Below are positions 3,098 through 43,281 of a stretch of 64,000 nucleotides of DNA, piece after piece; positions within the stretch are counted from its first letter, which is position 1; each line of letters opens with the position of its first letter. The translations under genes and the position numbers were made by a program. Source of the stretch: Amphiscolops sp. MND2022 (lineage: Eukaryota). The notes beneath the pieces were generated by a model. The model was not told where the DNA came from. It worked only from the letters and a program-made list of their open reading frames with translations, and did no database searches. The stretch is taken from contig OZ076409.1 in NCBI GenBank assembly GCA_964187785.1, forward strand, positions 50,842,001-50,906,000. Reading direction: 5' to 3'.

Positions 3098-3101
3098 TTT
3101 T

Positions 3102-18092: not shown

Positions 18093-18115
18093 CATTACGA
18101 TACATATCCCCGCAA
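18093..18115 (+). repeat. Element A left terminal inverted repeat
   Basis: First 13 bp match the right end perfectly; one mismatch and one indel over 22-23 bp. Confidence 0.92.
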
Positions 18116-18414
18116 GCAAGTTCCAAGATCTTGCGACTTGCATTAATAACCAATCACAGTGAGTTATTACGATGTTGACTGTTTTACACACTTTTCTCCT
18201 ATTACACCAAGTGATAATTAGTTACACTGAATGACTAAAATTCACTAATTGACTGGTTTACACTATTTCCCGGTCCATAAATTTACACTAATTGACTGAA
18301 TTTCGCACTGATGCAGTACTACGCACTTTGACTAAATTACGCGATTTTCCACTACGCATTTTGACTGAATTACCCCGTCTTACTAATTACGTGGTGTAAA
18401 TTAGTCAAATAGTG

Positions 18415-18942
18415 TAGCACAGTAATGAACTTGACTATTTTACGCGTTTTGTGAGTCATTGGTTTACCTATATTAAAGATGGTTTTATAACCTTTGTTGT
18501 GAAGATTGAAATGCATTAATTTCAGTTCCGAAGATTGATGTTTGAGTTAATGTAAAAAAACATCAATGTTGGTTGATGATTTGTATTGGTGATCTAAGTG
18601 ATTCGAATTTATTCACGAGAATTCAAATCATAAAGTTTATGTTTAAAAATATTGCTTACTGTCATGATCAGTAAGAAATAGGTTCAAATCATAAGGTACC
18701 GTTGAAAATTTTGCTTACTGTCATGATCAGTAAGAAATTAGTTCAAATCATAAGTTACCGTTGAAAATTTTGCTTACAGTCATGATCAGTCAGAAAAAAG
18801 TTCAAATCATAAGGTACCGGTGAAAATTTTGCTTACTGTCATGATCAGTAAGAAATTAATTCAAACAAAGCAGTAAAACGAACTTAAGAGAATTTAGGTT
18901 AATTTTTTCTGAGAAATCATTTTAAATTGGAGAAGATTTGAT
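18415..18942 (+). repeat. ~530-bp subterminal direct repeat, copy 1 (contains ~59-bp tandem units)
   Basis: TAGCACAGTAATGAACTTGACT...GGAGAAGATTTGAT is nearly identical to 43282-43809. Confidence 0.92.
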
Positions 18943-19195
18943 ATTTAATATGATTTGATGGTTTGATGTTGAAGCATGTTTTGTAAGTGTTCCCCAGATT
19001 TGGAATATATTTGAATAACAAAATATTTGAATAACAAATATTGGAAGTTTTGACAACAAGTAGTCATGTTTTGTTTGTTTGACAGTGAGCAAAGTGACGA
19101 GAAACTCTTTGAAGTGAAGTGTCCAAAATGCAGATGGAAAAGCTTCATTCCCAAGAAAAACTGAAACTTCCAGAAATACCCAAATACTTCATTTT

Positions 19196-19395
19196 NNNNN
19201 NNNNNNNNNNNNNNNNNNNNNNNNNNNNNNNNNNNNNNNNNNNNNNNNNNNNNNNNNNNNNNNNNNNNNNNNNNNNNNNNNNNNNNNNNNNNNNNNNNNN
19301 NNNNNNNNNNNNNNNNNNNNNNNNNNNNNNNNNNNNNNNNNNNNNNNNNNNNNNNNNNNNNNNNNNNNNNNNNNNNNNNNNNNNNNNNNNNNNNN
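19196..19395. other. Assembly gap (200 N)
   Basis: Run of N. Confidence 1.
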
Positions 19396-20133
19396 CCCAG
19401 AAGAGTGTGCTTGCTATTTGTTTCTTGTAGGAGATAGCTTTCTAGAGAATAGAGTCATGGTCAGGAAGCAATTAAGTCAAATCATTAAAATACGATCGAG
19501 AAATTTGCTTACTGTCATGATCAGAACTGTTCATTTTAATATATCGTCAGCCAATTAAGTTCCTCCCGCTATATATTTATTCAATTAACGCAATTTGCTG
19601 AGCAGTGCAAGATTATAAGGTACTGAAATCCAATTGACTACAAGGATCGGTGGCATAAACGGTAGCATACAAGGCTGTCGATCTCTAGGACTGGGTTCAT
19701 TTCCCGGTGATGAAATTTTTTTTCATAATTGAAATTTAATTGGAATAAAAAATCAAAATTATACAAGATTACGGAACCAAAAATTGTCTAAATATTGTCA
19801 ATGCATACAGTGGGGGTAGAGGCTTTTCTTCTACAGTGGGGGAAATATCAGCCGGTGAAATTCTGAGAAAAGATCCTCAAGTTAACGTTGAGATCCGTTT
19901 TTCGAGAGAGAAATAAAAGATTTTGGCGAAAAAAAAGAATTAAATTGATCATTTTTTTTCATCATGACACCTTCAAGGGTCACCTTCGTCGTCATGTTTC
20001 TTTTCCAATGATTCTTTTTTTCTTTTCTTTTCACAACACATAATCATCATGATAATGATTATGATGATCAAATAAGCTCTTGATAAATGCAAATATTTCA
20101 AAAAATTCAAACATTTTTTACATTAAATGAACA

Positions 20134-20637
20134 CAGGCATGCGCAAAATACAATTGCCATAATATTTTCATCGAATATAAATAATGGTGTACGGTCCAAC
20201 CTGCCAGTGTGCAATAAATAATGGCCCTGAACCTCTTTCAAAAAATAAATAGTGGACATTATTTCAATTTTTTACCATTAACGGAATGAAAAAGCATGTT
20301 GTTCTCAGTATTTACAGACTAAAAATGTGTCTCTGTAGCGCACCGGGTCACCGTGATATCTTGATTTGTTTAACCAATCAGATTTCAATCAACATATCAG
20401 CGTTTGTGAGGAATTCAAACCACCAGATAACGTATTTCGAGACAACGTTACTGAGAAATAGGCCAGAGAGTAAATATTGGCCAATTCTGAAATAATGGGA
20501 AAGTATAGGAAACTCAGAAAACAATTTATGGCCCTGAAAAATTCTTTAAAAAGAAATAATGGATATGGTTTCGTTATCAGCAATAAAAAGTTTTATGGCC
20601 CTTATTTTTTCCCTACATGATTTTTTGCGCATGCCTG
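20134..20637. mobile_element. Non-autonomous hAT-type MITE
   Basis: 15-bp TIR CAGGCATGCGCAAAA and 8-bp TSD AATGAACA on both sides. Confidence 0.92.
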
Positions 20638-21426
20638 AATGAACAGTAATCACTCAAGGTCAGTTATTGCAGTAATAAAGGAATTTGAATAGGTCTATAG
20701 GCTATCATAACTAGCACTTTGAATTGATTTTCGACAAGCACTTAACTTAATGAAGGAGGAAAACTCAGCCGCGTTTACAGTAACTTGCGAAATTTGAGCC
20801 ATACCGGTCGAGTAAAAAAGTTAATTGCGTTGGTTCTTTTCTGCTTTCTCGGAAATAAATTTGTGAAATCATTAAAATAAAAAGACTTAGAACTGACTGA
20901 ATTAGAAACACTTACTTTTGTATTTATTCTCGGAAATCTTTGCACTTCTTATAGGTTAAGTTCTCATTTAACTTTTATTGAATGACTGGGGTCGTTATTA
21001 CTGCAATCCCTGGCTACAACCAATCTAAGTTTAACTAAAATAGGACGGACAACTAGTTTGGTACACTGTAGCAGCAGTTGTTTGATACACTGTTATTTGA
21101 TACACTGGCAGCCTGTTGTTTGATACACTGGAAAGGATACGACTTGACACTAATTGAGTTCGTAATAAGCCTGACTCCCAGATTGACACACATCAGCTAC
21201 TGGCACCAAGCTTGTACGCGCTGACTCATGATGGCGGCCAGAAAACGATTCCTCTGGGGCTTGAATTCTGGAAATTATAATTTCAGAATGATAATCTTTC
21301 AATAATTCGATGATGATTTTGCTTCTTTCAAAATCAAGAACGATAGCTTCAAAAAAGAAATATGAGTGGTAAGTAACATGACATCTGGTGACCAGATTTG
21401 ACTCAAGTTGAAAGAGTTCCTCAAAT

Positions 21427-24400
21427 TTACTTTGGAATGAATTTTGAAGTAGCCTCAAGATTAAATTTGTACGAATTACCTGTCTCGCGGGGAATGGAGG
21501 TGCATTTCAATATCCCGATTGACTTCATAGTCTCAGCCACGGAAGGGTGCTGGTATGCAACAACTTCAGGTGTTGAGATGTGTTGCTCGTACTGCCGCTC
21601 TGGGGGGGATGCTACTAAGGAGGAAAGCAAAGGGTAAGGGGCGAGAACGATCAGCTCATCATTTGTGAAGGCGCTGTCAGGAATTCTGTCACCATCATCG
21701 TTTCTCGTTGTCCACTTCGCAGGATAGTGAGCTCGGGACAGGTTCAAATAACGGGACAGGTCTGACAGGCAAGCTACAGAGACTTGGTTCTCAAATCTGC
21801 TGAGGGTGAATATCTGATCGTCAAGATATTCTCTGGAGAAACGAGGGTAGAGCTGAAAAATAAAAGATGTCAATACTAAAGATCTTCCTCAAATTGAATA
21901 CTTCAAGTTCTCATTCTGAAAATGTTTAGTCATTCAAAAAACAATGTTCCCGTTACATAATCGAAAACAACTTGTTCGCAACAACTAATCTCACCATTTG
22001 CACTTCCTGTTCATTGTAGATGCTGTCGATTGCCCTATGCATCACACGGAAGTCTCTAATCATCATACAGCCTGAGGACTGTGCAGCTTTGTGGAGCAAT
22101 ATGGCGAACAGCTCAGGAAGACCTGGGAACTTGTCATGCGCTGGAAAGGATGACTCATTCTCAATGGAAGATCGAATCAAATCGGAGTGGCCTTCTGCGA
22201 GAAAATTCGACCCCACAGCGATTGAGTTCCCTTTCGTGAGGACGAAGTGCAGGAATTGTGATGGCATCACAAGTATGTCACCAGGTTTCACAGTGATCAC
22301 TGCACATCCGCCCTCCAAACGTTTATGGCAAGCGAAAAATGTTGGCCTGTAACAAAACAGAAGAACATCAGTTTGTTTTGATATCCATAAACCAGAATGG
22401 TTGATAAATATTGGTTGAGAAATTTGAAAGATCGAAGAAAGCTTTCAAAGGTTCATTGTGCCTCAACTTGAATGTTTTGAATACATCAAAGTTTGAAGAG
22501 GTTTAATGAATTCATTTCATCGTTTTAAACAATATTATTTTTCCAGAACATCATTTATAAATCATTGAATTAACAAAACTTAACCATAAATTAAAAAAAC
22601 TGATTTGATTGATGTTTTTTTTAAAAAAATCGGATTTTAATTGATTCCTGATACTAAAACATTTTGAATACAATGAAATTCAGCAACATTTGGACTATTA
22701 TTAGCTATTAAAATTGGGTCCACTAACTGTGCATCTGTCTCTTGGCTAGTGTATTGATTGAATAGCTCAATATTACTCTGCGTCGGTGCCACTAGGAAAA
22801 AAATCTTCTCGCCCGTAAGTACAGTGTACTTCACGGACGTTGCAGAGAGGTCCTGGTGCCAAGTGGTCTGGCATCCATCGTTCGACACGAGCAGGTAATA
22901 TGAGGTAGCACAAGAGAACGGTTCTGATCTGTCTCCGAGGATCTCATCAACAAAGGGGTTGATGGATGTTTGCTGAATCATCGTCGGGACAGTGTACAAT
23001 TTCTGAAAAAAAAACCATAATTGGGATTAATCTCAAACCGATCATGACAGTAAACAAAATGGGTTGATACCATAATTGGGGTTAATCTCAAATCGATCAT
23101 GACAGTAAACAAAATGTGTTGATATCATAATTGGGATTAATCTCAAACCGATCATGACAGTAAACAAAATGGGTTGATACCATAATTGGGATTAATCTCA
23201 AAGTGATCATGACAGTAAACAAAACACAAAAATTGCACCTTTGGTTTCAATTGAATGTCGATTACATTCAGAGGGTAGAAAGGGCTGCTGGTGTCATCCC
23301 GGAGGAACTCATCCCGCACAGCGTCAAGGGTCAAATCACGTGTCTAAAAGTGAGAAAAAAGAGCAAATCACACCCCTGAATTAAACCATCAATTCAACTT
23401 TCTGTTTGAAATTTGAAATACTTTTTCGAATAGTATTTACTGTTTCGAGAAATTTTGTTTTGAAGTCACTTTGTTGTGAAATGAGCATGAATACTTGATC
23501 AATTTTACCTCTCCAAGTTTTGCTGACTTGACGTTGATGGTATGATCCGGATGCTGGAGATTCTGGGGTTGGAGAAGCTTCACCAGCTGATCGAAAAATG
23601 GCTTTTTGGCTTGAGGCAGTTTAATTTGCCGACAATGATCAACCCCATTCTGCCAAACTATGGGGATACCATTCCTGATCAACTGAGAGACTTTCCTCGC
23701 TTGATCTTTTATGGGACCATTCCATCTCGCAATAGGGAACTCCGGGGAACTTAGCGGTACGTCCAGACAAAATTGGAAGTATGCAGGAGAGCCAAAAACA
23801 TCAGGGGGCGTGGCATGAAAGTCACTTGGAGCGGGACACTCGCTTGATGAGGGGGAATCGGATAGGTCATCAACCTGTATAAGTAGAAAACGACACTTTA
23901 TGACACATAACAGCGGAATACGGGACAGTGAAAAAACGAACGAGCTGGGAAATTGAAGCCAAAATTATGTACTGTTGAAGTCTCCTGCATGTGAGCATGC
24001 TAATTATTCAATTCCCCAGAAGTATTTAAAACCTCCCACTTTAAAAAAAGAAATATATGCCTTCTACATCATAATGATTACGAATTAAAATTAAATTGAG
24101 TCAAGTTGATATTCAGTATTGGGGATGATTTTGGGTAATAACTGATCTTATGAGTCAATGATATAATGATTTAGTACCTTACTAATGATTTAGTGCCTTG
24201 CATAACTCACTTGTGTCTTGCAGCTCGGATGTTTGGAGATGTGGATTTGCAGGTCGTATGAATACGAAAACGTCTTGCCACATCCATAGCACTTGTGACT
24301 TTGGCGTCTCCCTCCGCGTGCTGCCTCTGTAAATTACAATCATATTTTGCACCGTGACGTTGAATCATGGATTAACAGATTTGATCTGATGTTCAAAGCT

Positions 24401-25108
24401 TAGATACAATTGTTTACTGGCGCGATAGGATCAAAGTAGCGATTTGATCTGATGTTAAAAGTTTAGATAATTTTGTTTATTGGTATGATCGGATCAAATT
24501 AGCGATTTGATTTGATGTTAAAAGTTTAGATAATTTTGTTTACTGGCATGATCGGATCAAATTAGCGATTTGATCTGATGTTCAAAGTTTAGATAATTTT
24601 GTTTACTGGCATGATCAGATCAAATTAGCGATTTGATCTTATGTTCAAAGTTTAGATAAATTTGTTTACTGGCATGATCAGATCAAAATAGCGAATTGAT
24701 CTGATGTTCAAAAGGTAAATAAATTTGTTTACTGGTATGAACAAATCACTTACTGTACTTGTACATGGTGATCGCTTCTCCTTTTCTTTTCAAGTCACGC
24801 TGCTTCACACAGTATTTGGTCAACTGATGCTTCTTCATGAACTTGGCCTGCATCAGTACCTGTCCACACTGCTCGCAAGTTCGCTGCCTGAGCTTCCACT
24901 CCTCTCTTGACTCATGGAGGCAGGTGGACTTCTGGTGGCGCGTGACGTTGCTTTTCACTTTGGACGAGTAGTCACAAGTTCCTTGTCCGCAGTGAAAAAG
25001 CTTGCTCGACGGAGAATATCGAGGTGTGGGTGCTGCCGGGGTAGAATCGGAACCCTGAGGGGATGCTGCTGAGGTAGAAGTGGCGAGAGCACTTTCACTT
25101 GGAAACAT
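21427..25108 (-). CDS. Spliced C2H2 zinc-finger (x3) + JmjC histone demethylase-like gene (KDM7/PHF8/KDM2 type), element A
   Basis: Phase-compatible GT-AG exons: 25108-24754 (two fingers), 24326-24211 (third finger CYGCGKTFSYSYDLQIHISKH), 23874-23509, 23343-23239, ~23002-22728 (WHQDLSATSV..GEKIFFLVAPT), ~22346-21996 (PGDILVMPSQFLHFVLT..GSNF), ~21852 onward. H-x-D...H iron triad is intact. The 3' end is uncertain and may continue to 21150 by frameshift. Confidence 0.88.
23006..23225. repeat. Intronic 55-bp tandem repeat x4 carrying the element A motif
   Basis: CATAATTGGGATTAATCTCAAACCGATCATGACAGTAAACAAAA repeated every 55 bp. Confidence 0.9.
24375..24740. repeat. Intronic ~63-bp tandem repeat x6 carrying the element A motif
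   Basis: GATTTGATCTGATGTTCAAAGTTTAGATAATTTTGTTTACTGGCATGATC units. Confidence 0.9.
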
Positions 25109-25189
25109 GAAAACTAAAAAATGGGATCATGAAGGTTTTCTCAAAATATTCTTAGGAAGAAATTGAAAAAGCTGAAAGACTATAGAAAA

Positions 25190-25625
25190 ACATGAAAAGG
25201 TCTGAGTGATCATGCCAAAACCATGAAAAGGCATGAGTCACCCTGTCAAAAACATGGAAAAGTCTGAGTGACCATGTCAAAAACAAGAATTGGTCTGATT
25301 GACAAGGTCAAAAACATAGGAGGGTCTGAGTGACCATGTCATAAACAAGAATAGGTCTGAGTGACCATGTCAAAACTTGAATAGGTCTGAGTGACCATGT
25401 CAAAACTTGAATAGGTCTGAGTGACCATGTCAAAAACATGAATATGTCTGAGTGACCAATTGAAAAACATGAAAAGGTCTGAGTGACCATGTCAAAAACA
25501 TGAAAAGATTTGACTGACAATGTCAAAAACATGAAAAGGTCTGAGTGACCAATTCAAAAACATGAAAAGGTCTGAGTGACCAATTCAAAAACATGAAAAG
25601 CCTTGGGGTCTGAGTGACCATGTCA
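25190..25625. repeat. ~30-33-bp minisatellite (GGTCTGAGTGACCATGTCAAAA)
   Basis: More than ten units. The same unit occurs inverted at 33515-33910, 37113-37388 and 37828-37870. Confidence 0.9.
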
Positions 25626-27447
25626 TGAAACAACATGAAAACACACGATGAACTAAATTTAAACTGAAACACTTTGATTCCTAGTGATTTTTTCTTTTGC
25701 ATGGCTTCGATAGCCAGACATTGTCTTATAATTAACATTTGACAATAGAGCGACGTGGACATTAATGTTTTTGTTGAAATTGAGGCTGCAGGATTTGTCA
25801 ACGTTGAACTTCAATGAAACGACCCAAGCTGTCCCGTCAGCAACTTTGTCCCATTCGTGTCCTAGAACAGTGTCCCACACAGCTGTTGAGTACTGTCCTT
25901 CTTCTTTCAAACTGTAAGTGACTGAACCTCCTCCAGCAGGAATACCAAATGCATGAATCAAAACGGAGCAGCTTGGAGCAATGTCTTTCTTGAAGTCCCT
26001 AATTCTAGATTGATCGCTATGAAAATGCATCAGCAAGTGCTTCAGGTTAGAGTACGCCCAGTATACTTTCGCATAATTATTGTCAAAAGGAACATCTGGG
26101 GTACTATGAAGTGGCAAAGTCCGATCTTTCTTCATGTAAGAAAGAGGTACCGTTGATTTGAAGAAAGGGTCATCTTCTTTCTCAACTTCGATGAATAGTC
26201 TCGAGTCTTCGATGAAAATCCCGAACACCCTCCACGAGAACTCAGTGCCCACCACGTTTACGATGTCTCATTTAACTGCAACCCCATTTTTGATTGGGAC
26301 GGAAACAAGCTCTACACGACCTTCAGGTTTCGTTAGGAAAGGTTCGGCTAGTCCTCCAGAAAGCACCTTCGCTAATTTCGGTTTCTTTCTAGAAGGCAGT
26401 TCAGTTCGGATGTTGCAATCGTCTTCTGTATCTTCTTCTGTTTCTTCTCGAAGCGTCACTCTCTTTTTCTTGTGAGATTCTTCATGCTTTCCCGGTCGTA
26501 GTTGAAAGTAAGAAATTGTCGTAGTCTTGGGGTCTGAGTGACCATGTCATGAAACAACATGAAAACACACGATGAACTAAATTTAAACTGAAACACTTTG
26601 ATTCCTAGTGATTTTTTCTTTTGCATGGCTTCGATAGCCAGACATTGTCTTATAATTAACATTTGACAATAGAGCGACGTGGACATTAATGTTTTTGCTG
26701 AAATTGAGGCTGCAGGATTTGTCAACGTTGAACTTCAATGAAACGACCCAAGCTGTCCCATCAGCAACTTTGTCCCATTCGTGTCCTAGAACAGTGTCCC
26801 ACACAGCTGTTGAGTACTGTCCTTCTTCTTTCAAACTGTAAGTGACTGAACCTCCTCCAGCAGGAATACCAAATGCATGAATCAAAACGGAGCAGCTTGG
26901 AGCAATGTCTTTCTTGAAGTCCCTAATTCTAGATTGATCGCTATGAAAATGCATCAGCAAGTGCTTCAGGTTAGAGTACGCCCAGTATACTTTCGCATAA
27001 TTATTGTCAAAAGGAACATCTGGGGTACTATGAAGTGGCAAAGTCCGATCTTTCTTCATGTAAGAAAGAGGTACCGTTGATTTGAAGAAAGGGTCATCTT
27101 CTTTCTCAACTTCGATGAATAGTCTCGAGTCTTCGATGAAAATCCCGAACACCCTCCACGAGAACTCAGTGCCCACCACGTTTACGATGTCTCATTTAAC
27201 TGCAACCCCATTTTTGATTGGGACGGAAACAAGCTCTACACGACCTTCAGGTTTCGTTAGGAAAGGTTCGGCTAGTCCTCCAGAAAGCACCTTCGCTAAT
27301 TTCGGTTTCTTTCTAGAAGGCAGTTCAGTTCGGATGTTGCAATCGTCGTCTGTATCTTCTTCTGTTTCTTCTCGAAGCGTCACTCTCTTTTTCTTGTGAG
27401 ATTCTTCATGCTTTCCCGGTCGTAGTTGAAAGTAAGAAATTGTCGTA
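25602..27447. repeat. 924-bp-period tandem duplication of the 3' part of the unknown cargo gene
   Basis: ORFs 25659-26255 and 26583-27179 are offset by 924 bp and differ by one residue. Confidence 0.95.
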
Positions 27448-27851
27448 AGATCAATTCCATCTAGCTGGTCGTCAAAAAATTTCCCGTCTTCAATTGGGAC
27501 GACTACAGGTGACACAAGCATCTGTTTTCTAAAGGGATCATTTTTCATGACATATCCCTCTTTCACGTTCCTCGTCAGTACTCCATCTCGTTCCATTGAT
27601 TCCGTGTAATGAATCGGATCATTTCTGACTCGCTTTTCTTTGAAGTAGCCAAGAACTTCAAGACTGAGGACCAACTCAATTCGCCTGCTGTAACTTGCGG
27701 CTGTGCCCTCGTTTTCTCTGATAGGCCATTTTTCAGGAAATTCGTGGAAGCGTGGTGGCGCTTCTACAATTCCGTTAGCGTACTTGCTTGAGTAGTTCAG
27801 CCATTGTACGGTGGCCTGAAAAAAAGCCATCATGGTCATGGTCATGATCAC
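26583..27851 (-). pseudogene. Unknown cargo gene of element A (~420 codons, one in-frame TGA at 27192-27194); homologue of 48327-49640
   Basis: ORFs 27192-27851 and 26583-27179 are in the same frame. Shared blocks with the B gene: NDPF, VP..NG....I....G.EF, D..LG..WD. True start may be further upstream or spliced. Confidence 0.78.
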
Positions 27852-28419
27852 CTGAATCTATTTGAATATAATTGGAAAATGGATATTGGTGGGAGTTTCC
27901 CAAAGTGTAAGGCTTCATTTATTGCTAGTTTTATGAACAAAAAAATGCTCCGCTCCCATTTTTTGTTTTCCCGGCGATTTTCACACACAAAAACTATCAC
28001 GGGATTGAGAAATGTATCATGATACATGTATCAAGATATCATTTTGAAGTTTATAAATTTAAAACATCTTGAAGCTTGAAGCTCATACTAATACAGTTTA
28101 CAGTGTTTTTAGGAAAAAACTATACCGCCAGAATCATATTGTTTGGGAAATTTTTCCGTCAAAATTTTTCTGGAATCAAAAATTTGTAAGTGGGTCAAAA
28201 AATGAAAAAAAAACTAAAGAATGATGTTTTGGAAATTGCTCTCGACCAATGAAATGAGCGCGTGAGGCATTGATCAGCAAAGGATATTTGTTTGTTTGGT
28301 TTCCTTCCGCATGAAATGTTGCTTCTTCCAGAATCACTACTGTTTAGTCACGAAACGTGAAAAATGAAAAAAAAATTCTGAAAAACTTCGGTAGTGGAAA
28401 AAACAGAAATGAGCAAAAA

Positions 28420-28487
28420 CACTCGCCCGGAATCGAACCCACACACAAGATATGAGAATAAAGGCAATTAACCACTGAGCTACCGAT
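28420..28487 (-). repeat. tRNA-derived (SINE-like) remnant
   Basis: Minus strand TAGCTCAGTGGTTAA (A box) ... GGTTCGATTCC (B box); no convincing cloverleaf. Confidence 0.5.
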
Positions 28488-29170
28488 GTTGCTCATGCAG
28501 CCATCAACAGCACATATAAATTACTGTGATTAGGAAATCGTCCCCTATGCGCTAAGCGTCGTTATCAACCAATTAGAATGATTAGGTACCACAAAAAATA
28601 AGAGCAAAAAACATAAAAACTAACTTTTGAAAAATTAGTTTCAAATAACATAAAAATGAACCCGAACACCTGGCTAAGAAATCAAATTCACGAAATTTTA
28701 TTTGTAATTTTCATACTTTTTTCAGTGAATCTTTTGAATTGTGAATGCTTTTGACAACTAAAACTTTCTCGTAAACTATTTTACTTTTATGTTTAGTAAA
28801 ACTCATTTCATTTTTATGTTATTTGAAACTAATTTTGTTTTTGTTATTTGCTCTATGTTCAACTAAGCTATTTGGGAATTCACCAATTAGAATGTGTATT
28901 TTCTCTCACTTTCAATTCTGATTGGCGCATCAAGTGAAATCTCTGGCGCAGAAAGGACACTTCTGGTATTTTCCCAGTTTTTCAAATTCAGCTAATTGTA
29001 ACTTTCTCAATTTTTGTACCAGAAAAATTTAAAAAAACACTTAGGCAAACTAGATGAAACTCCAAGAAACTTTTGTTTCTTATGTTTTTCAAAATTCTAG
29101 ACAACTTCGAAAAAATCGAGCTTAAAATCGCCCCGAGTGCCTTTTTCTTAATCACAGTACTGTATTTAGG

Positions 29171-29326
29171 AGAAATTTGATTTGATCATGCCAGTAAACA
29201 AAATTTTCATACATACGATTCTTATTTTGCCGGAAGATAGCAGTATCATATTGCTATCTTCAGCAGGAAAAATATGAATCGTATGTATAAAAAATTTGTT
29301 TACTGGCATGATCAAATCAAATTTCT
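29171..29326. repeat. ~156-bp hairpin with an inverted pair of element A motifs
   Basis: AGAAATTTGATTTGATCATGCCAGTAAACAAA...TTTGTTTACTGGCATGATCAAATCAAATTTCT. Confidence 0.9.
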
Positions 29327-30156
29327 GATTTGGTTATCCCTAACCAATATTTTTGCGGACCCTTGATTAGTTTTATCAGATATTCAGAATAACAAAATAA
29401 CTTACTTTATGCGTCCCGATGAACTCCGTAATGTACGCTGAACGCCAAAGGCCGCATTCTTCTTCAAAGCATTGGAGTAGTTTTCCACAGTTGAAGTTTT
29501 TTGAGAATTGCATTGTTGAATGGATGGACTTGGTATCGAGTTGAATTTATCAAGATTAGGAGTAGTTTAAATAAGTCTGGCAGGCAAATGTGTGAGTAAA
29601 AAGGCCAAAATCCAATGCATAGGTGTGATTTTGGTACTTGACTGGTTTGAGTTGATTTAATCTACTAACACCTAAATTTGAGGGTTATCCTTTAAGGCAA
29701 GAGTTTATTAGAGGTTATCCGTTAGTTAAATTATATAGGTGTCAATTTTGTTGGTAGTGAAAAGAGTTTATCACCTCTTGACATGAGGTAATCGCTTAAT
29801 TGCCTTTTTTTCTGGGTGTGTAACAAAATTTTCTGAAGATCAGTTCTTTACCTTTCTTGCTTCATATTGCTCGCTTCTAAACTTGACTCTACAACTCCAT
29901 CGAATTCTCAATTGTCAAATAATACCACATCTCAATTTCACTTCAAATTCAAATAGATTAGTTAACAAATTTCAAACATCACTTCTGCTCATCTTAATTT
30001 TGCTTTCAAAGATTTGAGCTTTCAAAAAATTTCAAATAATTTGAAGTTAACAAAATACCATTCAATTTTAGTAAGTTTTACAGTTGTCACTCTACTGTAA
30101 CTTTTCTTTAACGTTTCTTTCCTTTACGTTCATAATTTTCATTTGTTTCTTCAATC

Positions 30157-33100
30157 ATGAACGGCGATTCAATGTTCTCTTTTCCAAACAACTCGAATTC
30201 TGATTATCACAATCTCCGAGAAGTCGCTAATCAGGTTTTACAGGACGCCCCACCCACAACATCCGATTTCAGTTATTCGCAACCCATAGAGGAGCCCCCT
30301 AGGTACCATGAGATGCAACCACGGCAACCCCACCATCAACCCTCAACCCAACCAGCTGTCTATGATCCCTACGAATTTGTGTCATCCAATTCGGTCCCTC
30401 AGGCTTCCAACTCGCCTCATGACAGTGTTGTGTCCGGAAATCGGCAAGATTTAGGTAAAGTATGCAGATAAACAATATTTTAAAAGTACTAGATAGAAAA
30501 AACTTTTCTACATAAAAAAAGGTTAATAACTTCTTAATATTAAACAACTGAAAATCTAGGATTTCATATTTCGCAAGACTTGTTTTTGTTTTTTTTTCAA
30601 ACAAAGAGTTCGGCAAAGAGTTTTTCATGCAATTTAACATGTCTTTTGTTTCATATTGTTTTTTGAAAAACTTTCTACTTCAAACTGAAAAAAAAACGGA
30701 TGTTCTTGTTTCTTAATCTTCAATTATTTTGGATGAAAATTAAAGAAAAGTACTTGTTTAATTGGCTATACCTAAATCAGAGTTTGACGGCCTGTCAACT
30801 TTCAGTTGGCATCTCAGCTTTGAGCGGATTTGAACCCGAACGAATTTTTGAGCATACACGATATATCACATTCAAAAAAGGGGTGAAAACAGTAGAAACA
30901 AAAAAAACAATAAATTAGCTTATTCAAATCTCAAAATGTATTAAAAGGGTTCTATTGGCGTGTCTTAAAACATTGTTTTAAAACAGGCCAACCCTGATAT
31001 TACGAGTTGAATACTAGTGAAAGAATGGTTACTAGTCGAAATGGTTTTTCAAACAGCTGCGAATTGTTCTTGTGATAACTTATCGTTGAACGATTTTTCA
31101 TTTCCAACACAAACCACGACGTATTACCCTCCCCACGCGGTACCAGCGGAAAAAAAACCCTCGGTTTGATCCTGGATCGACATCAACTCCGATGTGACCT
31201 CCGCACCCGATGCATAGACCCCGCCTTGAGGCATTGACTTTGCGAGTGCCTCCGATAAGCACTGTTCTATTTCCGGGTGCAGGTAGCTGTCAGATGCCTA
31301 CCCCTTCCAAATTCCCACCAGCAATGCCGCCAAGTGATGAGCAATCCCAGGCGATGAAAAAGTGGGCTGAAGGTCGCGCCCACATTCAGCATCTGGTTGA
31401 CTGCGACAAGACGCCCCCAAAAGAGGATTGTCTGCTCGTCTTCCAATGCCTAATGATAATGTGGTGCTACATCAATAGCTACCCCTCGCGCCTTCTGAAG
31501 CGATTCACTGTCTATGATTTTGTGAATTTCAACGAAAATGGCAGTGGCAGCTTCGTGGTTGCCGTTGAAGACGGGACCAAGTACAAATATAGAACTGCCC
31601 TCAGGTTTACCAAATTCGAGAAAAGTGTTTTGACATTTTTTTTTCAAACGCATCACACCAGTTTGGACTAATGCACTGAGAGTCCTGAATGAAAGTTTTG
31701 ACGTTACAACAATTGTCGCAGATGTCGAAGAAAGAACCCAGTCCTTCTACAACTCACAGGGCAATAAACAATTGAATGTTTCAAGAGTCTGCGAAAACTT
31801 TCAAAGCAACATGAATGCGACTCACAAAAAGAAACGGAAAGCAATTGTTGCTGGCCCTGATGAGGAAAGGATAAACGACGATGACGAGAACCCTCGCCCA
31901 AGCACAATTGATGACCCGACCGTCAACTTGAAGAAAGCGCGCATTTCACAGAACGAGATGATGACCATGTCGCCGACTTCCAAGAAACGAGTTTTCTATT
32001 CGGATTCCGATTTTGTTGAAAGTTTTAATGGGGTAAGTTCTTGTGTTTTCACAACAAAAGACAATAGAAAATTATCAAGCGTTATCAAACGTTGATTTGT
32101 TAGTGAAAATGTTTTTGATTTAATTTTGTTTACTGGCATGATCAGATCATCAATGTATGATTAACCAATGATTTTCACAACTTACTGTTTCTATATGCAA
32201 CTCAATATTTTCTTGTTTTCGAAACATGGGACAATACAAAAATATCAAACGTTTTTGATTTGTTAGTGAAAAATTTTTGATTTAATTTTGTTTACTGGCA
32301 TGATCAGATCATCAAATTATGATTAGCCAATGATTTTCACATCTAAGATTTTCTAGGTGAAAAAGTACTTCCGACACCCAACGAACGTCGATGAAAAGAT
32401 CCCGACGCCTGCTCAATGTCGCAAAACGATCATGGAAAACACGTCTATGGACAAGGCTGTAGCGCAAGAGCTGGGGGAAAGAATCAACAATCATTTGCGT
32501 TACAAACTTGTTCAATTACGTGTCCAAAAGATGTTGCAAATTTTGGCTGGATCTACAGCTCCTTCCAAAACCACTGTTGTGAACAATGTGCGAAGCCGTG
32601 GTTTGACGGATCATGCGAGGATTGTAGATAGCACACTCGCTCTACGGAAACCAGCCCCTGTTTCCGAAAACAGAAGATCGACGCGCCACACTCCAACTGA
32701 GGACACGACTCCTCATTCACACAGTAGAGGACACAACATGTTCTACTGCAGTTTAACATCTGCTATCGTCAACATGCAGAAAGTGACTGAATTCGTGGCA
32801 AGTCAGCATTGGCCGTTCCTTCAGATATGCGAGAAGATCGTTTTCGACAATGGTGCTTCTGGACGAGGCGTAGTAGCAACGACCCCGATCAACAAACACG
32901 AAGTTGTCTGTGACTATCACACAGTCCGTAATGTGCCAACGTGAAAACACGCAATATTTTCTAGACTGTGGCGACATAGTCTTTGATGCAACTTTAGACA
33001 CTTGTGAATGCCACCCTGGACGAAGAACACTTGGAAGACTTTTAAATTATAGACCAGATAATCACCCCCAATGCAATGTCCGCAAGAAGCGCATGGTGAT

Positions 33101-33464
33101 AAACGGAAAGAACGCTATTTTATTCATCGCAAAGAGAGACATAGACGCGTTGGAAGAAATATGCTTCGATTACAAAGACCCAAAATGCAAAGGCGAATTT
33201 TGTTCGAGACCTACTGCTGTTACTGTGTCATCCGACCCACCAACCTCTGACCCACCAACCTCTGATCCGCCAACCTCTGATCCGCCAACCTCTGACCCGC
33301 CAACCTCTGACCCGCCAACCTTTGACCCTTCATCTAATACGCCATCCTCTGAGTCTGTATCCGACTCACCGACCGTTGCGCACGTCCTATTATCTGAGTC
33401 CCAAGAAACCTTCCCACCATTGTGCAACGACTCTACCATTTTTGACGATTCGCCAATTTATTAA
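30157..33464 (+). pseudogene. Spliced SET-domain methyltransferase-like gene (SETD8/PR-Set7-like), element A; disrupted
   Basis: Exon 30157-30454 (donor GTAAAG), broken middle exon(s) ~30987-32032, last exon from 32357. SET motifs SGRGVVAT..VVCDYH, FDAT, GRLLNY, LFIAKRDI..EEICFDY. Frameshift near 32930. (DPPTS)n tail. Confidence 0.82.
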
Positions 33465-33514
33465 ATTTCAGATCTACTAGGTCTTGTGGCAAACTTCTTT
33501 TTTGAAATCATTTG

Positions 33515-33910
33515 GTCACTCATCATTTAAATCACTCAGACCTACACTTTTTTGACAGGGTCACTCAGACCTACTAGGTAGTACAAAGTCTTTTTTTGAC
33601 ATGGTCACGCAGACCTACAAATTTCTTTTTTGACGTGGTCACCCCAACCTATAAATATATTTTTTTGAAATGGTCACTCAGCACTACAAATTTCTTTTTT
33701 GACATTGTCACGCAGACATACTCTTTTTTGACAGGGTCACTCAGACCTACTAGGTAGTACTAGGTAGTACAAAGTCCGTTTTTGACATGGTCACTTAGAC
33801 CTACAAATTTCTTTTTTGACATGGTCACTCCAACCTACAAATGTATTTTTTTGAAATATCATATACTCAGCACTACAAATCTCTTTTTTGACATTGTCAC
33901 TTTTTTGACA
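33515..33910. repeat. Minisatellite (TTTTGACATGGTCACTCAGACC) upstream of the transposase
   Basis: Reverse complement of the 25190-25625 unit. Confidence 0.88.
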
Positions 33911-33947
33911 TGACGTTTCATCCCAACGTTTTAAATTTTAGTTTGAC

Positions 33948-36900
33948 ATGTTCAAGCAAAACCCACCATCTCTGACGGGAAATCAAATTATGTGAAGCTT
34001 GTCTTCCTGAACATTCTCTTTCCAACGATGTTCCCCCTACATCCCGAGAAGAAAAATGGTCTCGAAAAAAATGGCCCACGAAAGATCAAAACATACATCG
34101 AGAAACATTTCAACGGGTCAAAAGTCCAGATCAATGATGTCTATAAGCCTAACGGGATCAAGTCCGAACGATCTGCTGCACTGCGAGAAGATATATTTGA
34201 CCTCATGATGATATCTGCCCCACCGTGCACACTTCCTTGGTCTCCCGAAAGACTACAATATTTGAGACATTTCTATCCAACTTTGCCCCTTGCTTGTATA
34301 GACGCACAAGAATTGAAGACTGTTGATGTATCGATCCTGAACGCACCTGATGCCCCAGCCGACTTATCGACAAACTTATCAATTCAATCAACTTGCCGTG
34401 ACATGGTTCCAAACACATCAAATGCTCTGACAAACGATGACATATCAATCGAGTATCGCCAGTTCAGGCTTGCTTTTGAGAAGTCGGAGAAGTCACAGTT
34501 CTGGTCTAATTCATTTAAACTTTTGACAGAGTCAGCCGACTTCCTGAATCAGTTCGCTTTGAGTTTGAGAGACTATCTCTACAAACAAAAAGATGTTTCA
34601 AAAAGAAAGAATACCATTGTCTGTCGACTCCTCGGAAAGCTACTTCAAAATTTTTTCAGTAAAGATAGAGACGAAACACAAATCGATATCCAATGCCTCC
34701 TTATGTTGAACAATCCTCAGGACCTTCTCGTGAAGATACGCCAGTTACTCAAGTGCCCATTCGTGAAAGCGACGATATTGCCATCACGACTCGAACTTTC
34801 AATCATCAATAGACGGATGAATGATTTATTCAGAACTATGCTTGAACCATCGAGAACGCATACCGACTTCCGTGTAAACCTTGTGAACTTTGTGAAGTTT
34901 GTTGCCCTTCATGTCTATGGAAAGAATTCCATCTCGGGATTGCGAATCGACGTTTATGGTGATGCAATGTCATGAGGCAAACGAGATGTCGTGAGAATGG
35001 CCTTCCGCATCTTAGATACTGGAATCGAAACTGAACAATCTTCGACGCATGTTTTCACTTTCGCAGTTTTCGACGTAAGTTTTGGCTTATGTGTTTTCCA
35101 ATTTTGCTTTCTGATTTGATCTTCAATGTGAATATATTTCTTAGAATTTTGCATACTGACGTCATCCTCCATGTGGTTTATGTTTTGTTTTCACTTTACT
35201 TACTGGCATGATCTTCCAAAAATTTTATGTTTCTTCAATTTTGCTCACTGGCATGATCTTCCATGTGGTGTATGTTTTCACAGGGGAAAGATGTACGAGT
35301 CAATTTAGAGTATAACCTGACAATGGCGAACGTATTAGAACACAATAGGTGGTTATACAATGAAACCAAAGCATTGCATGAAGAAGGAGCCATTTTGAGT
35401 TGTTCGGGTGATTCGCCTTTCCAGCTGAGATTACTGAAAGGAGTCAGTAGTGACGTTTCATGCCTTTCGAAAATGTGCCTGTATGTTCCTGATCCTCCCA
35501 TTTTGTCGCAAATTGTCCCAAAGCAGCAAGCGAAAAAGAACAGTGAAGCACACAAGAAGGAGAAAGAAGGGATGGGTGCGATTCTTCCTTCCACGGTTGA
35601 TCATTTCACTGGGAGACGAACTGTGCTGACTATTGATATCAACGAACAAATTCCAAACGAATCGCTTATGTTTTTGAAGTCCACATTCAACACGTGCCCT
35701 GATGTTCTTCACATGATTGTTCGATCTGTCGGAAGTGATCTGAAGCTACACGTCGATTCACTGATCCTATCTAATATGCTTGCGATATCGAAATTAGAAT
35801 GTAATATTACACAAAGAAATGTAAAGCCGCCTCGTTTCAGTTTTGAAATAGTTGATAAGCTTTGTAAGGCTGTTTCTTTGAGCTTTCGAGACGCTGAAGT
35901 CATCATCTCGGACTGTACACGGACGAGCGAATATGGAAGAATGGATATTCCTATATTCGAAGGTGTATATTCATTCGAAGAGGCACATGTTTACAAGGCT
36001 GATCAGGCGAATGAAAATACACCATATAATGTACTGATATCCTTGGTGGACGGTTTAGAAACATCGTTTCCGAAAGGCATTGGTAATTCACAACGGAAAT
36101 TGGCCAATCTGCAATTTCAATCGCTGTACCAACTGCTGGAGCTATTGCGACAACGGGAGTTGACTGATCTCCAAAGTTGTAAAGACCTTTACGAGACATA
36201 TTATCAAAGTACCATATGTTTATTTGGGGATCGTGCCTTGACTCCGTACAAACTGAAGATCGACATGCTGCTGAGGATATTCGAAAAGGGAGAGATTTTA
36301 GCCCCATTTAATAACATGACCGAAGGCACAGAAAAGAGTCACCATACAGCCAGCAAAGATTACAATTCGAGAACGATGCGCGACGGCGGTAACGATGCTT
36401 GGAATATGTCGTCAAATTATCTTGACATACGATTTTCATTCTTTCGAGCCATTGATGTGTCGTCGTCAAAGTCGAAGTTGCTTCAACAGTGCCCCGACCA
36501 AATAGCCAAGACGTATCTACAGATTTGCCAAGAGTCGATTGATGTGCCCTCTCTTGACATCGGAAGGACGAGCGATATTTTCAGATGCATGAACTTTGTT
36601 GTTCTCGGAACATATGGGCATTTGAAAGAAACTCAAGGAAGCTTGGAGAGGAAGATTTTGGAAAACGCTGGCATCGTTCTGAGCAATACAGACATCATTA
36701 ATCGAAGCAAGTTGAGTTTCCTAAGCCACCATTACTGTGTTCTCCCGAAAAGCAAGTTCATAGATACTTTGGTAAAAAACACGCCCGGCACGAACGAGAC
36801 ACTTGTTACCAAAGCGGTGTATCATACCACACTGGGCAATTGGATTTACTTGAAGGCAGAATTCATTACTGAATGTGTGAAGAGAAACATGTTGATGGAT

Positions 36901-37095
36901 CCCAAAGATTACACTTTTGAACTGGATGCCACAGCAAGGGCTAAATTGAGAAAAATACGTTTCCAGAACATCGCGCCGCAATTACAAAGACAATCACAAC
37001 CTCTCAGGACTGGGTCGATAACATACCATACCGCAATCAGGAAGTATAAAACCGCCCAGAAAGCATTGAAAAGGAAATTCAATAGCGTCGAATAA
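33948..37095 (+). pseudogene. RAG1/Transib/Chapaev-like DDE transposase fused to a C-terminal BRCT domain (~980 aa), element A
   Basis: D1 in IDVYGDA (34961), D2 in SCSGDSPF (35410), PDVLH (35710), LTPYKLK, E in MTEGTEKSH (36331), then BRCT-like FRCMNFVVLG...LERKILENAG...LKAEFITECVKRNMLMDPKDY. Phase-0 intron 35075-35283. In-frame TGA at 34973 and a 1-nt deletion just after ATG 33948. Confidence 0.82.
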
Positions 37096-37112
37096 TGATA
37101 CCACCACTTCCA

Positions 37113-37388
37113 CATTGTCACTCAGATCCCCTTTTGATTTTGACATGGTCACTCAGACCTACAATTTTTTTGACATGGTCACTCGGACCTACATATTTCT
37201 TTTTTGAAATGGTCACTCAGACCTACATATATCTTTTTTAACATGGTCACTAAGACCTACAAATTTCTTTTTTGACATGGTCACTCAGACCTAGAAATAT
37301 CTTTTTGACATGGTCACTCAGACCTACAATTTGTTTGACATGGTCACTCAGACATTCAAATTTCTTTTTTGACATGGTCACTCAGACC
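37113..37388. repeat. Minisatellite downstream of the transposase (same unit as 33515-33910)
   Basis: TTTTGACATGGTCACTCAGACCTAC units; the array resumes at 37828 after the MITE. Confidence 0.88.
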
Positions 37389-37827
37389 CAGGGCTGTTCA
37401 CAATTAAAATGCAATCATTTTTTGAGTCTACAATTTCATTTATATTTTTAACATTGCCAACAATTATAATTGCAATTATTGTTACATTTTTTCCTATATA
37501 AAACAATATATGTAAAACATTTGAAATTAAAAGAAAAACAGAAAGTCCCGGTTGAGTGCCTAGAAAATTTGACTTTCAAGATGGTGTGGTAGCCTGGATT
37601 TTCTGAAAAATGTCCTTTTCCAGACTTGAAATTTCCTCTCCGTTCTGATACTTTCTCAGCGCTGTTTCAAAAACCGGTGAATGAATTACACAGTGACGCA
37701 GGAACAAAATGTTCCATTTATTTACATGCGACAATTTTTATTGCATTTTTTTCAAATGGTCACATTTTCTAGTACCAGTAGAAAAATGACAATTATTCTT
37801 ATGACAATTCATTTTTGAACAGCCCTG
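37389..37827. mobile_element. Non-autonomous hAT-type MITE inserted in the minisatellite
   Basis: 12-bp TIR CAGGGCTGTTCA and 8-bp TSD CTCAGACC. A related left end occurs at 40484-40630. Confidence 0.92.
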
Positions 37828-37907
37828 CTCAGACCTACAAGTTTCTTTTTTACATGGTCACCTTTTGACATGACGTTTCATCCAAACATTTTTTATTTCA
37901 GTTTGAC

Positions 37908-38047
37908 ATGTTCAAGCAAAAACCCACAATATCTGACGGGAAAGCAAATTATGTGAAACTTGTGTTCTTGAACATTCTATTTCCAACGATGTTCCCCCTA
38001 CATCCCGAGAAGATAAATGGCCTCGAGAAAAATGGCCCACGAAAGAT
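37908..38047 (+). pseudogene. Truncated paralogous 5' end of the element A transposase
   Basis: Reads MFKQKPTISDGKANYVKLVFLNILFPTMFPLHPEKINGLEKNGPRK and matches 33948-34086. Confidence 0.88.
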
Positions 38048-39246
38048 ATATGCAAAAATCCATGAACTCATATGGTAGGATCGATGGAATAATTACACTC
38101 AAGTTTTGTTTACTGGAATGATCAGACAAGTATAATTTTGTTTACTGGCATGATCAGAAGACAACAATTATGGTAATTTTGGGACCATGTCAACTATTTT
38201 CCACCAGGTACACCTTGCAGGATTCTGTCATTTATTTTATTGGATCAAAATTTCAACGCAAACGATGTCGACATAATGGTATTTGAACCTTTTGTCTTAC
38301 TACCCCCGCCGTTTTTTGAGGGAAAATGACATGGTCCTAATTTTGTGTACTGGCATGATCATAATATACAAAAACCAAAAATGAAAAACAACAAAATGAT
38401 TACGTACCAAATAGCATAAGAGCAAATAACAGAAACAAAATTAGTTTCAAATAACATAAAATTGAAATTAGTTTCAAATAACAAAAAACCAAAAACCCGG
38501 TTAAACAATCGACATCAGAAAATTTCGTCTGTATTTGCCTCACAGAATCTTTTGTATTGTGAATTTTTTTGACCACTAAAACTTTCTCGTAAACAATTTT
38601 ATTTTTGTTAAGTGAAACTCATCATAAAAATAAAACTGTTTATGAGAATTTTTTTGTTTATATAGAAGTTTAGAAAATTGAAATTAGTTTCAAATGACAT
38701 ACAAATGAAATGACTTCATTTTTATGTCATTTGAAACTAATTTCAACTTTGTTATTTGCCAAATGCTCTTGTGTTATATGGGAATTCACCAACAAAAACT
38801 CAAAAATCAAACCTGTCTTCCTTTTTGGTTGTGCTTTGGATAAAACTGATCGTCGGTCTGGATAAATTGCAGTTCAGCAACGAAAAACTCAATTGGGCTC
38901 TGAATCAAATTGGATTCAAAAAGTTACGGATTTTATTGAAGCTAACAATTACAGTGTAATTACAGTGAATCAAAACAAGGTGCAAATTGGAAACGTCGAA
39001 CACGCACTTGCGGTATTGAACTGGAATTTGATTGGCTAATTTTATGCATTTTTAGTCACGTGACTGCGTGTAAACTGTTTTCGACGCTTTAAATATTCTA
39101 CGATTTGAATCGTCCTCGCAAAACGGTTACCATAGCAACAAGGTAAACAAATTAAGCGAGCTTGAATAACGTGTAAACTGTTTTCGACGCATTAATATTC
39201 TACGTTTTGAACCGTCCTCGCAAACGGTTACCATAGCAACAAACTA

Positions 39247-39770
39247 AACAAGACGGGAACGTCCCAAGTCGGCGCCATATCTTAGGCTCAAAAATATTCA
39301 AGGAACAACTATTGGAAAAATTTGGAAAAAAAAATTTTTCAAAAAAAAAATTTTGATTTTTTTTCGAAAAAAGTATTTTTTAGGTCGCACAATGCCGAAA
39401 AACTCAAAAAGAGGCCATTCAGGCTCATTCAACGTTTTCTACAAACCGAAAACTTCAAAAAAAATCAAGGGGGTACCCTTTGATAAATTTCGAAAGTTTT
39501 CGAAAAAAGTCACATAGTGCCGAAAAAAAACCCAAAGGGGGGACCCTTTGGTCTTACCTGTACTTTTGGAAGCATTAAAAAATTTATGGTTTAGTGCGGG
39601 ATTCGAACCCACGCTCTCCGGCTGGGTCGAAGATAGAAGATGAACAAATATGAAAGATGAACAAAAATTGTAAGAAAAGTGGACCACTCAGAGTGAGATT
39701 GTCAACTGAAAAAAAAAAACTACTCACTGTAAGAGTCGGGCTTTTTTCCTTAAGGGAAAAGGCGCCGACT
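39247..39770. mobile_element. Short non-autonomous insertion, Helentron/HINE-like
   Basis: Interrupts a local tandem repeat at AACAAG. Asymmetric subterminal inverted repeat AGTCGGCGCC (39267) / GGCGCCGACT (39761). Internal B-box-like GGATTCGAACC. Confidence 0.55.
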
Positions 39771-42664: not shown

Positions 42665-42741
42665 AAAATTTTGCTTACTGTCATGATCAGTTTGATTAAT
42701 TATGATTTAATCAAACTGATCATGACAGTAAGCAAAATTTT
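42665..42741. repeat. 77-bp hairpin with an inverted pair of element A motifs
   Basis: AAAATTTTGCTTACTGTCATGATCAGTTTGATTAA...TTAATCAAACTGATCATGACAGTAAGCAAAATTTT. Confidence 0.92.
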
Positions 42742-43281
42742 TACGCACTAGAAGTTTTGTCAAAGTCAGTTTCGTAGGTGAAAGGAAAGTGGCGCTGCTT
42801 GTCGTTCACTTGTGGGTATATGTGGTGTATATATGCATATAATTAGTATCACTGTAGCTATTCTAAAATTTGGTTTAGCCTTTTAGCTTCAAATAACATA
42901 AAAATGAAATTACTTTCATTTAACATGAAAACTGATAACCCGGTGAAAAAAATGAACTCACGAAATTGTATTTGTAAATTCGTGACCACTTTCTCTTCAA
43001 CAATTTTTGTTTTGTGAAACTTTTCTATCAACTTTGTCGGGCACAAATTACTGCTGAGATTACAAATCTCAACGAAAAATAACTTTTGCCCAGTATAATT
43101 TAGTTTTAAAGAGGCTCTCAGTTAAGGGATCACATAGTGTCGCCCATAACAAGACCCACGCCGAGAACGTGGCCTCTGAAGGGTCTCAAAGATTGTAAAT
43201 ACAACTAAGTAACAATACTTCAACACTGTGCACTGTGGTGTGTTGGAAAATGAACACATGTTTAGTTCATGTTTAAACATC

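Follow-up and report, generated by a model that had tools for sequence, protein, structure and literature searches.

A predicted zinc finger-JmjC fusion gene of KDM2/7-like type carried as cargo by a DNA transposon

What is a JmjC domain of histone demethylase type doing beside zinc fingers inside a transposon, and do the two belong to one protein? The question is raised by a 64,000-nucleotide stretch of the Amphiscolops sp. MND2022 genome (GCA_964187785.1, contig OZ076409.1, forward-strand positions 50,842,001 to 50,906,000; this whole stretch is referred to as the window, and all positions are given within it), for which an initial annotation had proposed that zinc-finger exons splice into a JmjC domain. 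Our results indicated that this locus, hereafter gene A (25108-21427, minus strand), is a real gene whose fingers and JmjC domain are predicted to splice into one protein. It takes its meaning from being cargo of a multi-copy DNA transposon (element A), and its family is a candidate for an element-encoded eraser of repressive histone methylation.

The gene model comprises seven predicted exons (1995 nucleotides, 664 amino acids, no internal stop codon), with residues counted from the first in-frame ATG:

24754..25108, minus strand: exon 1, a Ser/Pro-rich stretch, finger 1 (residues 40-63) and finger 2 (residues 78-100)
24211..24326, minus strand: exon 2, 116 bp, finger 3 of the C2H2 type (residues 131-151)
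23509..23874, minus strand: exon 3, linker plus the JmjC domain's N-terminal flank, with four relatives at 79-94% identity
23239..23343, minus strand: exon 4, the part of the JmjC flank that holds N305 and I307 in the string LNVID (like PHF8 N189 and I191)
22728..23002, minus strand: exon 5, first half of the JmjC core with T360, H363, D365, Y373 and K380, and P330, L366 and K372, which are private to this copy
21995..22346, minus strand: exon 6, second half of the JmjC core with H439 and N453, and post-core helices
21427..21852, minus strand: exon 7, poorly conserved C-terminal tail with the stop codon at 21429-21427

All six introns have GT..AG borders, measure 142-427 nucleotides and hold stops in all three frames, with a G+C fraction of 0.26-0.33 against 0.47-0.51 in the exons. 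The junction previously described at the end of exon 1 (TAC A/GTAAGT) is present at 24754, the 116-bp exon proposed for a third finger does encode one that passes Pfam PF00096, and the exon from 23874 runs into the JmjC flank without a stop, as had been claimed, within a seven-exon join that is open throughout. Only three AG..GT segments of 60-250 nucleotides would bridge exons 1 and 3 in frame; the donor of each is at 24210, each encodes finger 3, and skipping of exon 2 causes a frameshift. At the 5' end, possible splice acceptors lie beside the ATG at 25108, and the finger exon of the paralogue described below starts at an acceptor; it is not certain that this ATG is the true start.

The same architecture occurs a second time in the window, where it was found by tblastn of the gene A model:

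50779..53453, minus strand: paralogue B, six exons with finger-finger-finger-JmjC as in gene A, part of a second, related element

The two proteins are identical at 166 of 534 aligned residues (31%), and their DNA shares almost no similarity (one 43-bp match, E 0.03). Four of the five introns of paralogue B fall within one alignment column of those of gene A in the same phase, and at least four such coincidences arose in 1 of 200,000 trials of random placement, a figure that overstates the agreement because the splice sites of B were chosen by eye with those of A in mind. The fifth intron has the same context as in gene A (after M and before xYP) and failed to align. Intron 2 is missing from paralogue B, where a single exon spans finger 3 and the JmjC flank; the paralogue is itself damaged, carrying an in-frame stop at codon 374 and a Cys to Arg change in finger 3. 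Among database relatives, P0083, P0165 and P0166 have an N-terminal C-x2-C-x12-H-x5-C pattern (C2HC, like finger 2), and in P0083 and P0165 this pattern and the HxD and K of the JmjC domain lie in one unspliced frame. Because paralogue B joins finger 3 to the JmjC flank in one exon, and P0083 and P0165 fuse finger and enzyme unspliced, a fused gene is the natural reading. The open model of gene A and its sole frame-keeping bridge also support the single-gene claim of the initial annotation.

With regard to the enzyme, all 14 matches of exon 5 to solved structures (PDB, E up to 1) and 12 of the 13 matches of exon 6 were KDM2/7 proteins. A 33-row profile placed KDM2/7 structures at E 2e-52 to 3e-41 and JMJD7 and JMJD6 at 4e-4 or worse, with no KDM4 among the 30 PDB entries that it matched (E up to 10). 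The predicted fold of P0085, a relative with a full core that was modelled in place of the gene A protein (pLDDT, the predicted local distance difference test, 78; pTM, the predicted template modelling score, 0.79), matched PHF8 best (E 6e-20), with JMJD6 at rank 31. On these profile and fold ranks we rejected the identity of a non-histone hydroxylase of the JMJD6/JMJD7 kind, and the KDM2/7 type previously implied for this JmjC domain is backed by all three comparisons. PHF8 and KDM7 outranked KDM2 by profile and fold, by a small margin, and KDM2A scored near PHF8.

The H-x-D...H triad and the lysine that had been reported as intact are present as H363-x-D365...H439 and K380. The triad aligns to PHF8 H247, D249 and H319, and N305, T360, Y373 and K380 match PHF8 N189, T244, Y257 and K264, the residues for 2-oxoglutarate (2OG). 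In the methyl-lysine pocket I307 and N453 are kept (PHF8 I191 and N333), and the site of PHF8 F250 is occupied by L366. The residue matching PHF8 Y234 is also present in gene A. In a computational study of PHF8, H247, D249 and H319 bind iron, N189, T244, Y257 and K264 bind the 2OG/succinate carboxylate, and I191, F250 and N333 are second-shell substrate residues (PMC9516565). Conservation across the divergent clade to which gene A belongs was high for the first H (89/92), the D (90/92), the K (88/92) and the second H (23/23). Pfam searches of all seven exon frames gave no match to PHD, CXXC, F-box or LRR, and none to JmjN.

The search for relatives returned 326 matches among 1.84 billion representatives, 150 of them listed, and none of the 20 proteins looked up carried a name. 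A tree was built by a quick method, without an outgroup, from the 111 of 164 profile-matching rows that covered at least 110 profile positions. Gene A and paralogue B group together (99 in the Shimodaira-Hasegawa-like approximate likelihood ratio test, SH-aLRT) in a 64-row clade that a long branch separates from 47 canonical-type rows (SH-aLRT 100), a topology that would fit a sister as well as a derived position. Two rows labelled divergent by a motif rule were placed among the canonical rows. By its sequence, the JmjC domain of gene A is predicted to be a KDM2/7-like Fe(II)/2OG dioxygenase, in a separate divergent clade, and its domain content places it outside KDM2/7 itself. Word-index searches for long relatives yielded none among 38 candidates in one case and one canonical-type protein in another, and a metagenome scan gave six loci of 1.1-2.1 kb, too short for gene context. 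The divergent clade also reaches unrelated eukaryotic contigs with few introns (L001-L006, and the divergent rows among P0013-P0138). An Atlas JmjC cluster of 174 members carries C2H2 on 27% (score 0.85); this is a lead only that unstudied C2H2-JmjC relatives exist.

The fingers were initially described as three of the C2H2 type. There are three, and finger 3 is C2H2 and the sole one above the PF00096 threshold of Pfam (30.2 bits, E 5e-7), but fingers 1 (C-x4-C-x12-H-x4-C) and 2 (C-x2-C-x12-H-x5-C) end in Cys and are C2HC. Linkers between the fingers measure 14 and 30 residues in gene A and 9 and 21 in paralogue B. In classical fingers, the residues at helix positions -1, 3 and 6 read bases. 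At these positions fingers 1, 2 and 3 have V/N/R, Q/F/K and Y/D/I in gene A and R/N/R, T/T/R and R/S/R in paralogue B, with R/G/R in P0083. These are mostly typical base-reading residues, which is only suggestive of sequence-specific DNA binding. Finger 3 of paralogue B also has D at helix position 2 (R-1/D2/R6). Its helix, RSDSLQRH, is near that of a classical GC-reading finger.

Gene A lies within element A, the main features of which are as follows:

18093..44528, unstranded: element A, 26,436 bp with a gap of 200 Ns counted in, inserted in a Gypsy integrase reading frame
18093..18117, plus strand: left terminal inverted repeat, beginning CA, with TT before it
44505..44528, minus strand: right terminal inverted repeat, ending TG, with TT after it, matching the left end in 22 of 25 aligned columns
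33947..37095, plus strand: transposase-like gene of two exons (intron about 35075-35283), with DDE-like acidic motifs, a weak C-terminal BRCT and a stop at 34973-34975
32357..33464, plus strand: SET-domain gene (PF00856, E 4.5e-6), frameshifted near 32940
25659..27857, minus strand: upstream gene of unknown family, interrupted by an in-frame stop (27194-27192) and holding a tandem duplication of 925 bp

The inverted 18-mer alone is not significant, arising in 8 of 100 shuffles; the ends rest on the 22/25 match, the CA..TG termini, the TT duplication and the split integrase frame taken together, the left flank ending ...TTDRATM and the right flank resuming FTSTII.... A 533-bp direct repeat (18415-18947/43282-43814) was considered as the element ends and dropped for the terminal inverted repeats with their target site duplication. 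Its copies are 96% identical, lie just within both ends and each hold a 59-bp array of motif A (see below). Clusters of TTGACT-type repeats in both orientations occupy subterminal positions (18150-18440, 44100-44470), as expected of transposase binding sites. Of the genes inside element A, two are of unknown family. Further right, at about 45900-63211, lies a second, related element whose ends were not found; it has a homologous transposase-like gene (29%, E 3e-41) as well as SET and finger-JmjC homologues, and the two diverged elements in the window share this trio.

With its CA..TG ends and the TT on each side, element A resembles the CMCT DNA transposons, which have 5'-CA..TG-3' termini and a target duplication of 2-5 bp. 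The motifs C(2)C and H(3-4)H, which should lie after the second D and before the final E, were nonetheless not seen in either transposase-like protein (3-row alignment), all three traits belonging to the clade definition (PMC12730594). We have not filed element A in the CMCT clade. Its transposase-like protein shows a weak Atlas likeness to RAG1, Plavaka, EnSpm and Transposase_21 clusters (0.75-0.77, a lead only), the D, D and E being assigned by eye, and the transposase-like proteins gave no PDB match and no transposase Pfam match. They possibly represent an unclassified DDE lineage. By eye, those at 35257-37095 (plus), 58887-60209 (minus) and 60758-62032 (minus) have a RAG1-like spacing of acidic motifs without C(2)C and H(3-4)H.

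Further features of the window surround these genes. The second element has a SET gene at 45915-47027 (minus), open reading frames (ORFs) at 48261-49640 (plus) and a transposase-like gene in pieces at 55810-63211 (minus) with tandem duplications of 1.9-2.0 kb. The ORFs at 48261-49118 (plus) and 27192-27857 (minus) show an aromatic-rich beta-strand pattern that looks Tudor- or chromo-barrel-like by eye, with no Pfam match at E 0.05. Two decayed Gypsy retrotransposons occupy 1-7500 and 13100-18092 plus 44529-44800, the latter split by element A. A viral origin was rejected for want of support: at the sole viral locus, a long phage-like ORF matched the motif by chance, none of 103 candidate stretches was confirmed for the transposase-like proteins, and viral folds matched P0085 at E 7e-9 compared with 6e-20 for PHF8.

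If the fingers read DNA, candidate sites are at hand. All 29 window matches to a repeat motif A and all 25 to a motif B lie inside element A (chance means 0.05 and 0.00), with none in the second element or in the Gypsy DNA of the window. The two motifs share the core CATG(A/G)TCA, and many stand in tandem arrays in introns and beside genes, among them:

25186..25600 (listed to 25626), minus strand: motif B in a 31-bp tandem array, directly upstream of exon 1, a candidate finger target
24378..24740, unstranded: motif A in a 63-bp tandem array, within intron 1
23014..23224, unstranded: motif A in a 55-bp tandem array, within intron 4

Pairs of motif A form near-perfect palindromes at 29171-29326 (61-bp arms, 93%) and 42665-42741 (35-bp arms, 100%). 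Motif B arrays (25186-25626 minus, 26532-26550 minus, 33552-33901 plus, 37112-37390 plus) stand directly past stop codons, in every case in the sense of the preceding gene; they could be a shared terminator or 3' untranslated region signal and not a protein site.

The reading we favour, which in our judgement is as likely to be right as wrong, is that the family of gene A encodes a finger-aimed eraser of repressive histone methylation, predicted from sequence and a modelled fold. The transposon cargo would produce one protein with three N-terminal fingers and a KDM2/7-like JmjC domain, whose PHF8-like methyl-lysine pocket would remove mono- and dimethyl groups from lysine. The most likely mark would be H3K9me2/1 (histone H3 with two methyl groups or one on lysine 9), since PHF8 acts on it and its removal would serve a transposon; H3K27me2, H3K36me2 and H4K20me1 are also possible. 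The fingers would replace the PHD or CXXC of host KDM7 and KDM2 and aim the enzyme at motifs found only in the element, with CATG(A/G)TCA as a candidate, and the resulting anti-silencing would keep the transposase expressed. The proposal covers the family, the gene A copy itself sitting in a dead element. A wider version draws from us rather more doubt than belief: an unclassified lineage of large CA..TG DNA transposons may have rebuilt KDM2/7 as a sequence-programmed eraser by swapping its PHD for DNA-reading fingers, which would co-evolve with the tandem motifs of each element family, adding a SET writer of its own, and so have arrived at an enzymatic counterpart of VANC (an anti-silencing protein discussed below) from a broad undescribed JmjC clade.

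Several observations weigh against this reading. Pfam did not recognise the finger of P0083 and P0165, and the finger pattern occurred in 1 of 158 proteins in one set of relatives, most of which are single-exon fragments. The C2HC ligands of fingers 1 and 2 and the linkers of 14 and 30 residues differ from classical DNA-reading arrays, and the helix of finger 3 in gene A (Y-1, Y2, D3, I6) is an atypical set. As for the motif arrays, they could instead serve as terminators or transposase sites. The FGGTSVWYH signature is lost in the divergent clade (G251 to S/T, W256 to F/M, H258 to T, e.g., FSATSVFYT), for which reason its substrate choice may have shifted, and a SET writer in the same element misfits a pure eraser model without further assumptions. 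Finally, three residues of gene A depart from its family: P330, where H stands in 47/73 clade rows and 6/6 close relatives; L366, which occupies the site of PHF8 F250, with F in 68/92 clade rows; and K372, a lysine found in none of the clade (0/92) or canonical (0/66) rows elsewhere.

Those last points bear on the state of this copy. The initial annotation had seen no lesion in the gene up to the end of the JmjC core; this stands for stops and frameshifts, but not for H330P, F366L and M372K, which are private changes at sites conserved in the family. Against 13 relatives (at least 70% identity) gene A has eight private positions, one of them an exon-edge artefact and three at conserved sites. 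As 3/66 canonical rows also have L at the F250 site, and three clade members (P0028, P0029 and P0032) have Arg at that of residue 372, none of the three changes would surely be fatal. It is true, as had been supposed, that gene A is the best preserved gene of the element; it is the only open frame there, and its neighbours carry the transposase-like stop, the SET frameshift, a probable frameshift near 31640 and the stop and 925-bp duplication of the upstream gene. Some of these lesions could be assembly errors; element A is evidently dead. By rough arithmetic, with about four lesions in the roughly 6 kb of coding DNA around it, a 2-kb gene has about a 1 in 4 chance of escape under neutral decay, and for this reason its open frame shows no selection. 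The gene A copy may be decaying, and whether it is impaired is for us an evenly balanced matter. Many close relatives (70-94% identity) are frameshifted fragments on long contigs of the European Nucleotide Archive, as expected of a multi-copy transposon.

Two alternatives to the favoured reading retain some weight, each of them unlikely in our view. It is possible that the enzyme is an active histone demethylase whose fingers are adaptors for protein or RNA, for example to the transposase or SET protein, or bind DNA irrespective of its sequence. Protein binding is common among isolated C2HC fingers, two of the three fingers are C2HC, and the linkers are long and differ between the paralogues (14/30 vs. 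9/21); on the other hand, base-reading residues at -1, 3 and 6 recur in gene A, paralogue B and P0083, and motif arrays confined to the element exist. To a similarly small degree we allow for another mark or protein as the substrate, either in a putative write/erase switch with the SET protein (on H4K20 or the transposase) or in removal of H3K36me2 that keeps the element quiet in the soma. SET and finger-JmjC genes do co-occur in both elements, KDM2A, which scores close to PHF8, is an H3K36 demethylase, and the loop after HxD has diverged, whereas the rank of PHF8 and KDM7 above KDM2, by a small margin, argues the other way.

That gene A is passive cargo, a captured host gene without benefit and in decay, would be consistent with the many broken relatives, the stop in paralogue B and an open frame that shows no selection. 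We consider this improbable, given that two element families only 31% identical have kept the catalytic residues, the spacing of the fingers and the positions of introns, which would require long purifying selection at the family level. Still less probable is a non-enzymatic anti-silencing factor of the Epe1 kind, which would bind methylated histone or HP1 and block silencing without catalysis; Epe1 is a precedent (PMC7192584) and the pocket of the gene A copy has changed, but the metal and 2OG residues are all kept across the clade. Separate transcripts for the finger and JmjC exons, for which the uncertain 5' end of gene A leaves room, are the least credible, in view of the shared exon in paralogue B, the single frames of P0083 and P0165 and exon 2 as the only frame-keeping bridge.

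If the favoured reading is true, a direct test of how DNA transposons escape histone-based silencing becomes possible, a compact natural sequence-targeted eraser would be available, and the 'extra KDM2/7 paralogues' of genome surveys may be transposon cargo. For transposons, DNA-demethylating enzymes, SET writers and non-enzymatic anti-silencers are known. Finger-JmjC fusions (REF6, Rph1/Gis1) are likewise known, and selfish DNA is known to carry chromatin enzymes (SET, TET/JBP, KDM4-like JmjC). Gene A would add to these a variant of transposon-encoded chromatin enzymes with a predicted function: in the open-access literature, a scope that leaves Repbase Reports outside, we found no report of a DNA transposon with its own KDM2/7-like, finger-aimed histone demethylase.

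REF6/ELF6 and Rph1/Gis1 are JmjN-bearing, KDM4-related host genes with C-terminal fingers. They have zinc fingers and JmjC in one chain, as does gene A; in the latter, however, the fingers are N-terminal, no JmjN was detected and the JmjC is KDM2/7-like. An Atlas row with JmjN, JmjC and C2H2 is consistent with the REF6/ELF6/Rph1 type. Classical tandem C2H2 arrays have short linkers of the TGEKP type, unlike the 14 and 30 residues of gene A, and Cys2-His2 ligands, which only one of its three fingers has. The plant precedent put forward initially, that C2H2-JmjC is known mainly from REF6/ELF6, holds for REF6, a DNA-sequence-specific demethylase with fingers and JmjC in one chain (PMC7105484), but overlooked yeast Rph1/Gis1; of these, Rph1 has fingers and is active in demethylating H3K36 (PMC4085034).

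Among selfish elements, TET/JBP genes are carried by fungal transposons and SET genes by HarbingerS and oomycete MuDR, some of these genes lying in CMCT-clade DNA transposons (PMC12730594). These concern DNA methylation or the writing of histone marks, and the excerpted text of the same source has no JmjC eraser among them. Endogenised giant viruses of Amoebidium hold divergent, multi-exon KDM4-like JmjC paralogues without host reader domains, for which avoidance of silencing has been proposed (PMC11244446); like gene A they sit in selfish DNA and have lost reader domains, but they are KDM4-derived, viral and without fingers. More generally, 823 chromatin-transposon fusions have been reported (bioRxiv 10.1101/2021.11.30.470311).

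The KDM7 family (PHF8/KDM7B, KIAA1718/KDM7A and PHF2) and KDM2A are the best matches of gene A in sequence, profile and fold, with the same metal, 2OG and most pocket residues. Gene A differs from them in having no PHD, CXXC, F-box or LRR and an N-terminal C2HC-C2HC-C2H2 set instead, in its separate long-branched clade, and in being transposon-borne and multi-copy. The substrate of PHF8 is H3K9me2/1, and a finger protein, ZNF711, is bound by it in trans (PMC2989439). VANC of the Arabidopsis VANDAL transposons is transposon-encoded and binds tandem repeats in its own element, with targets that differ between related elements (PMC5735166). The motif arrays of element A are likewise confined to it; unlike VANC, to which no homology would be expected, the gene A protein has an enzyme domain of its own, with anti-silencing as a proposal only. 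The self-targeting logic that we propose for the element would thus parallel both VANC and the partnership of PHF8 with ZNF711.

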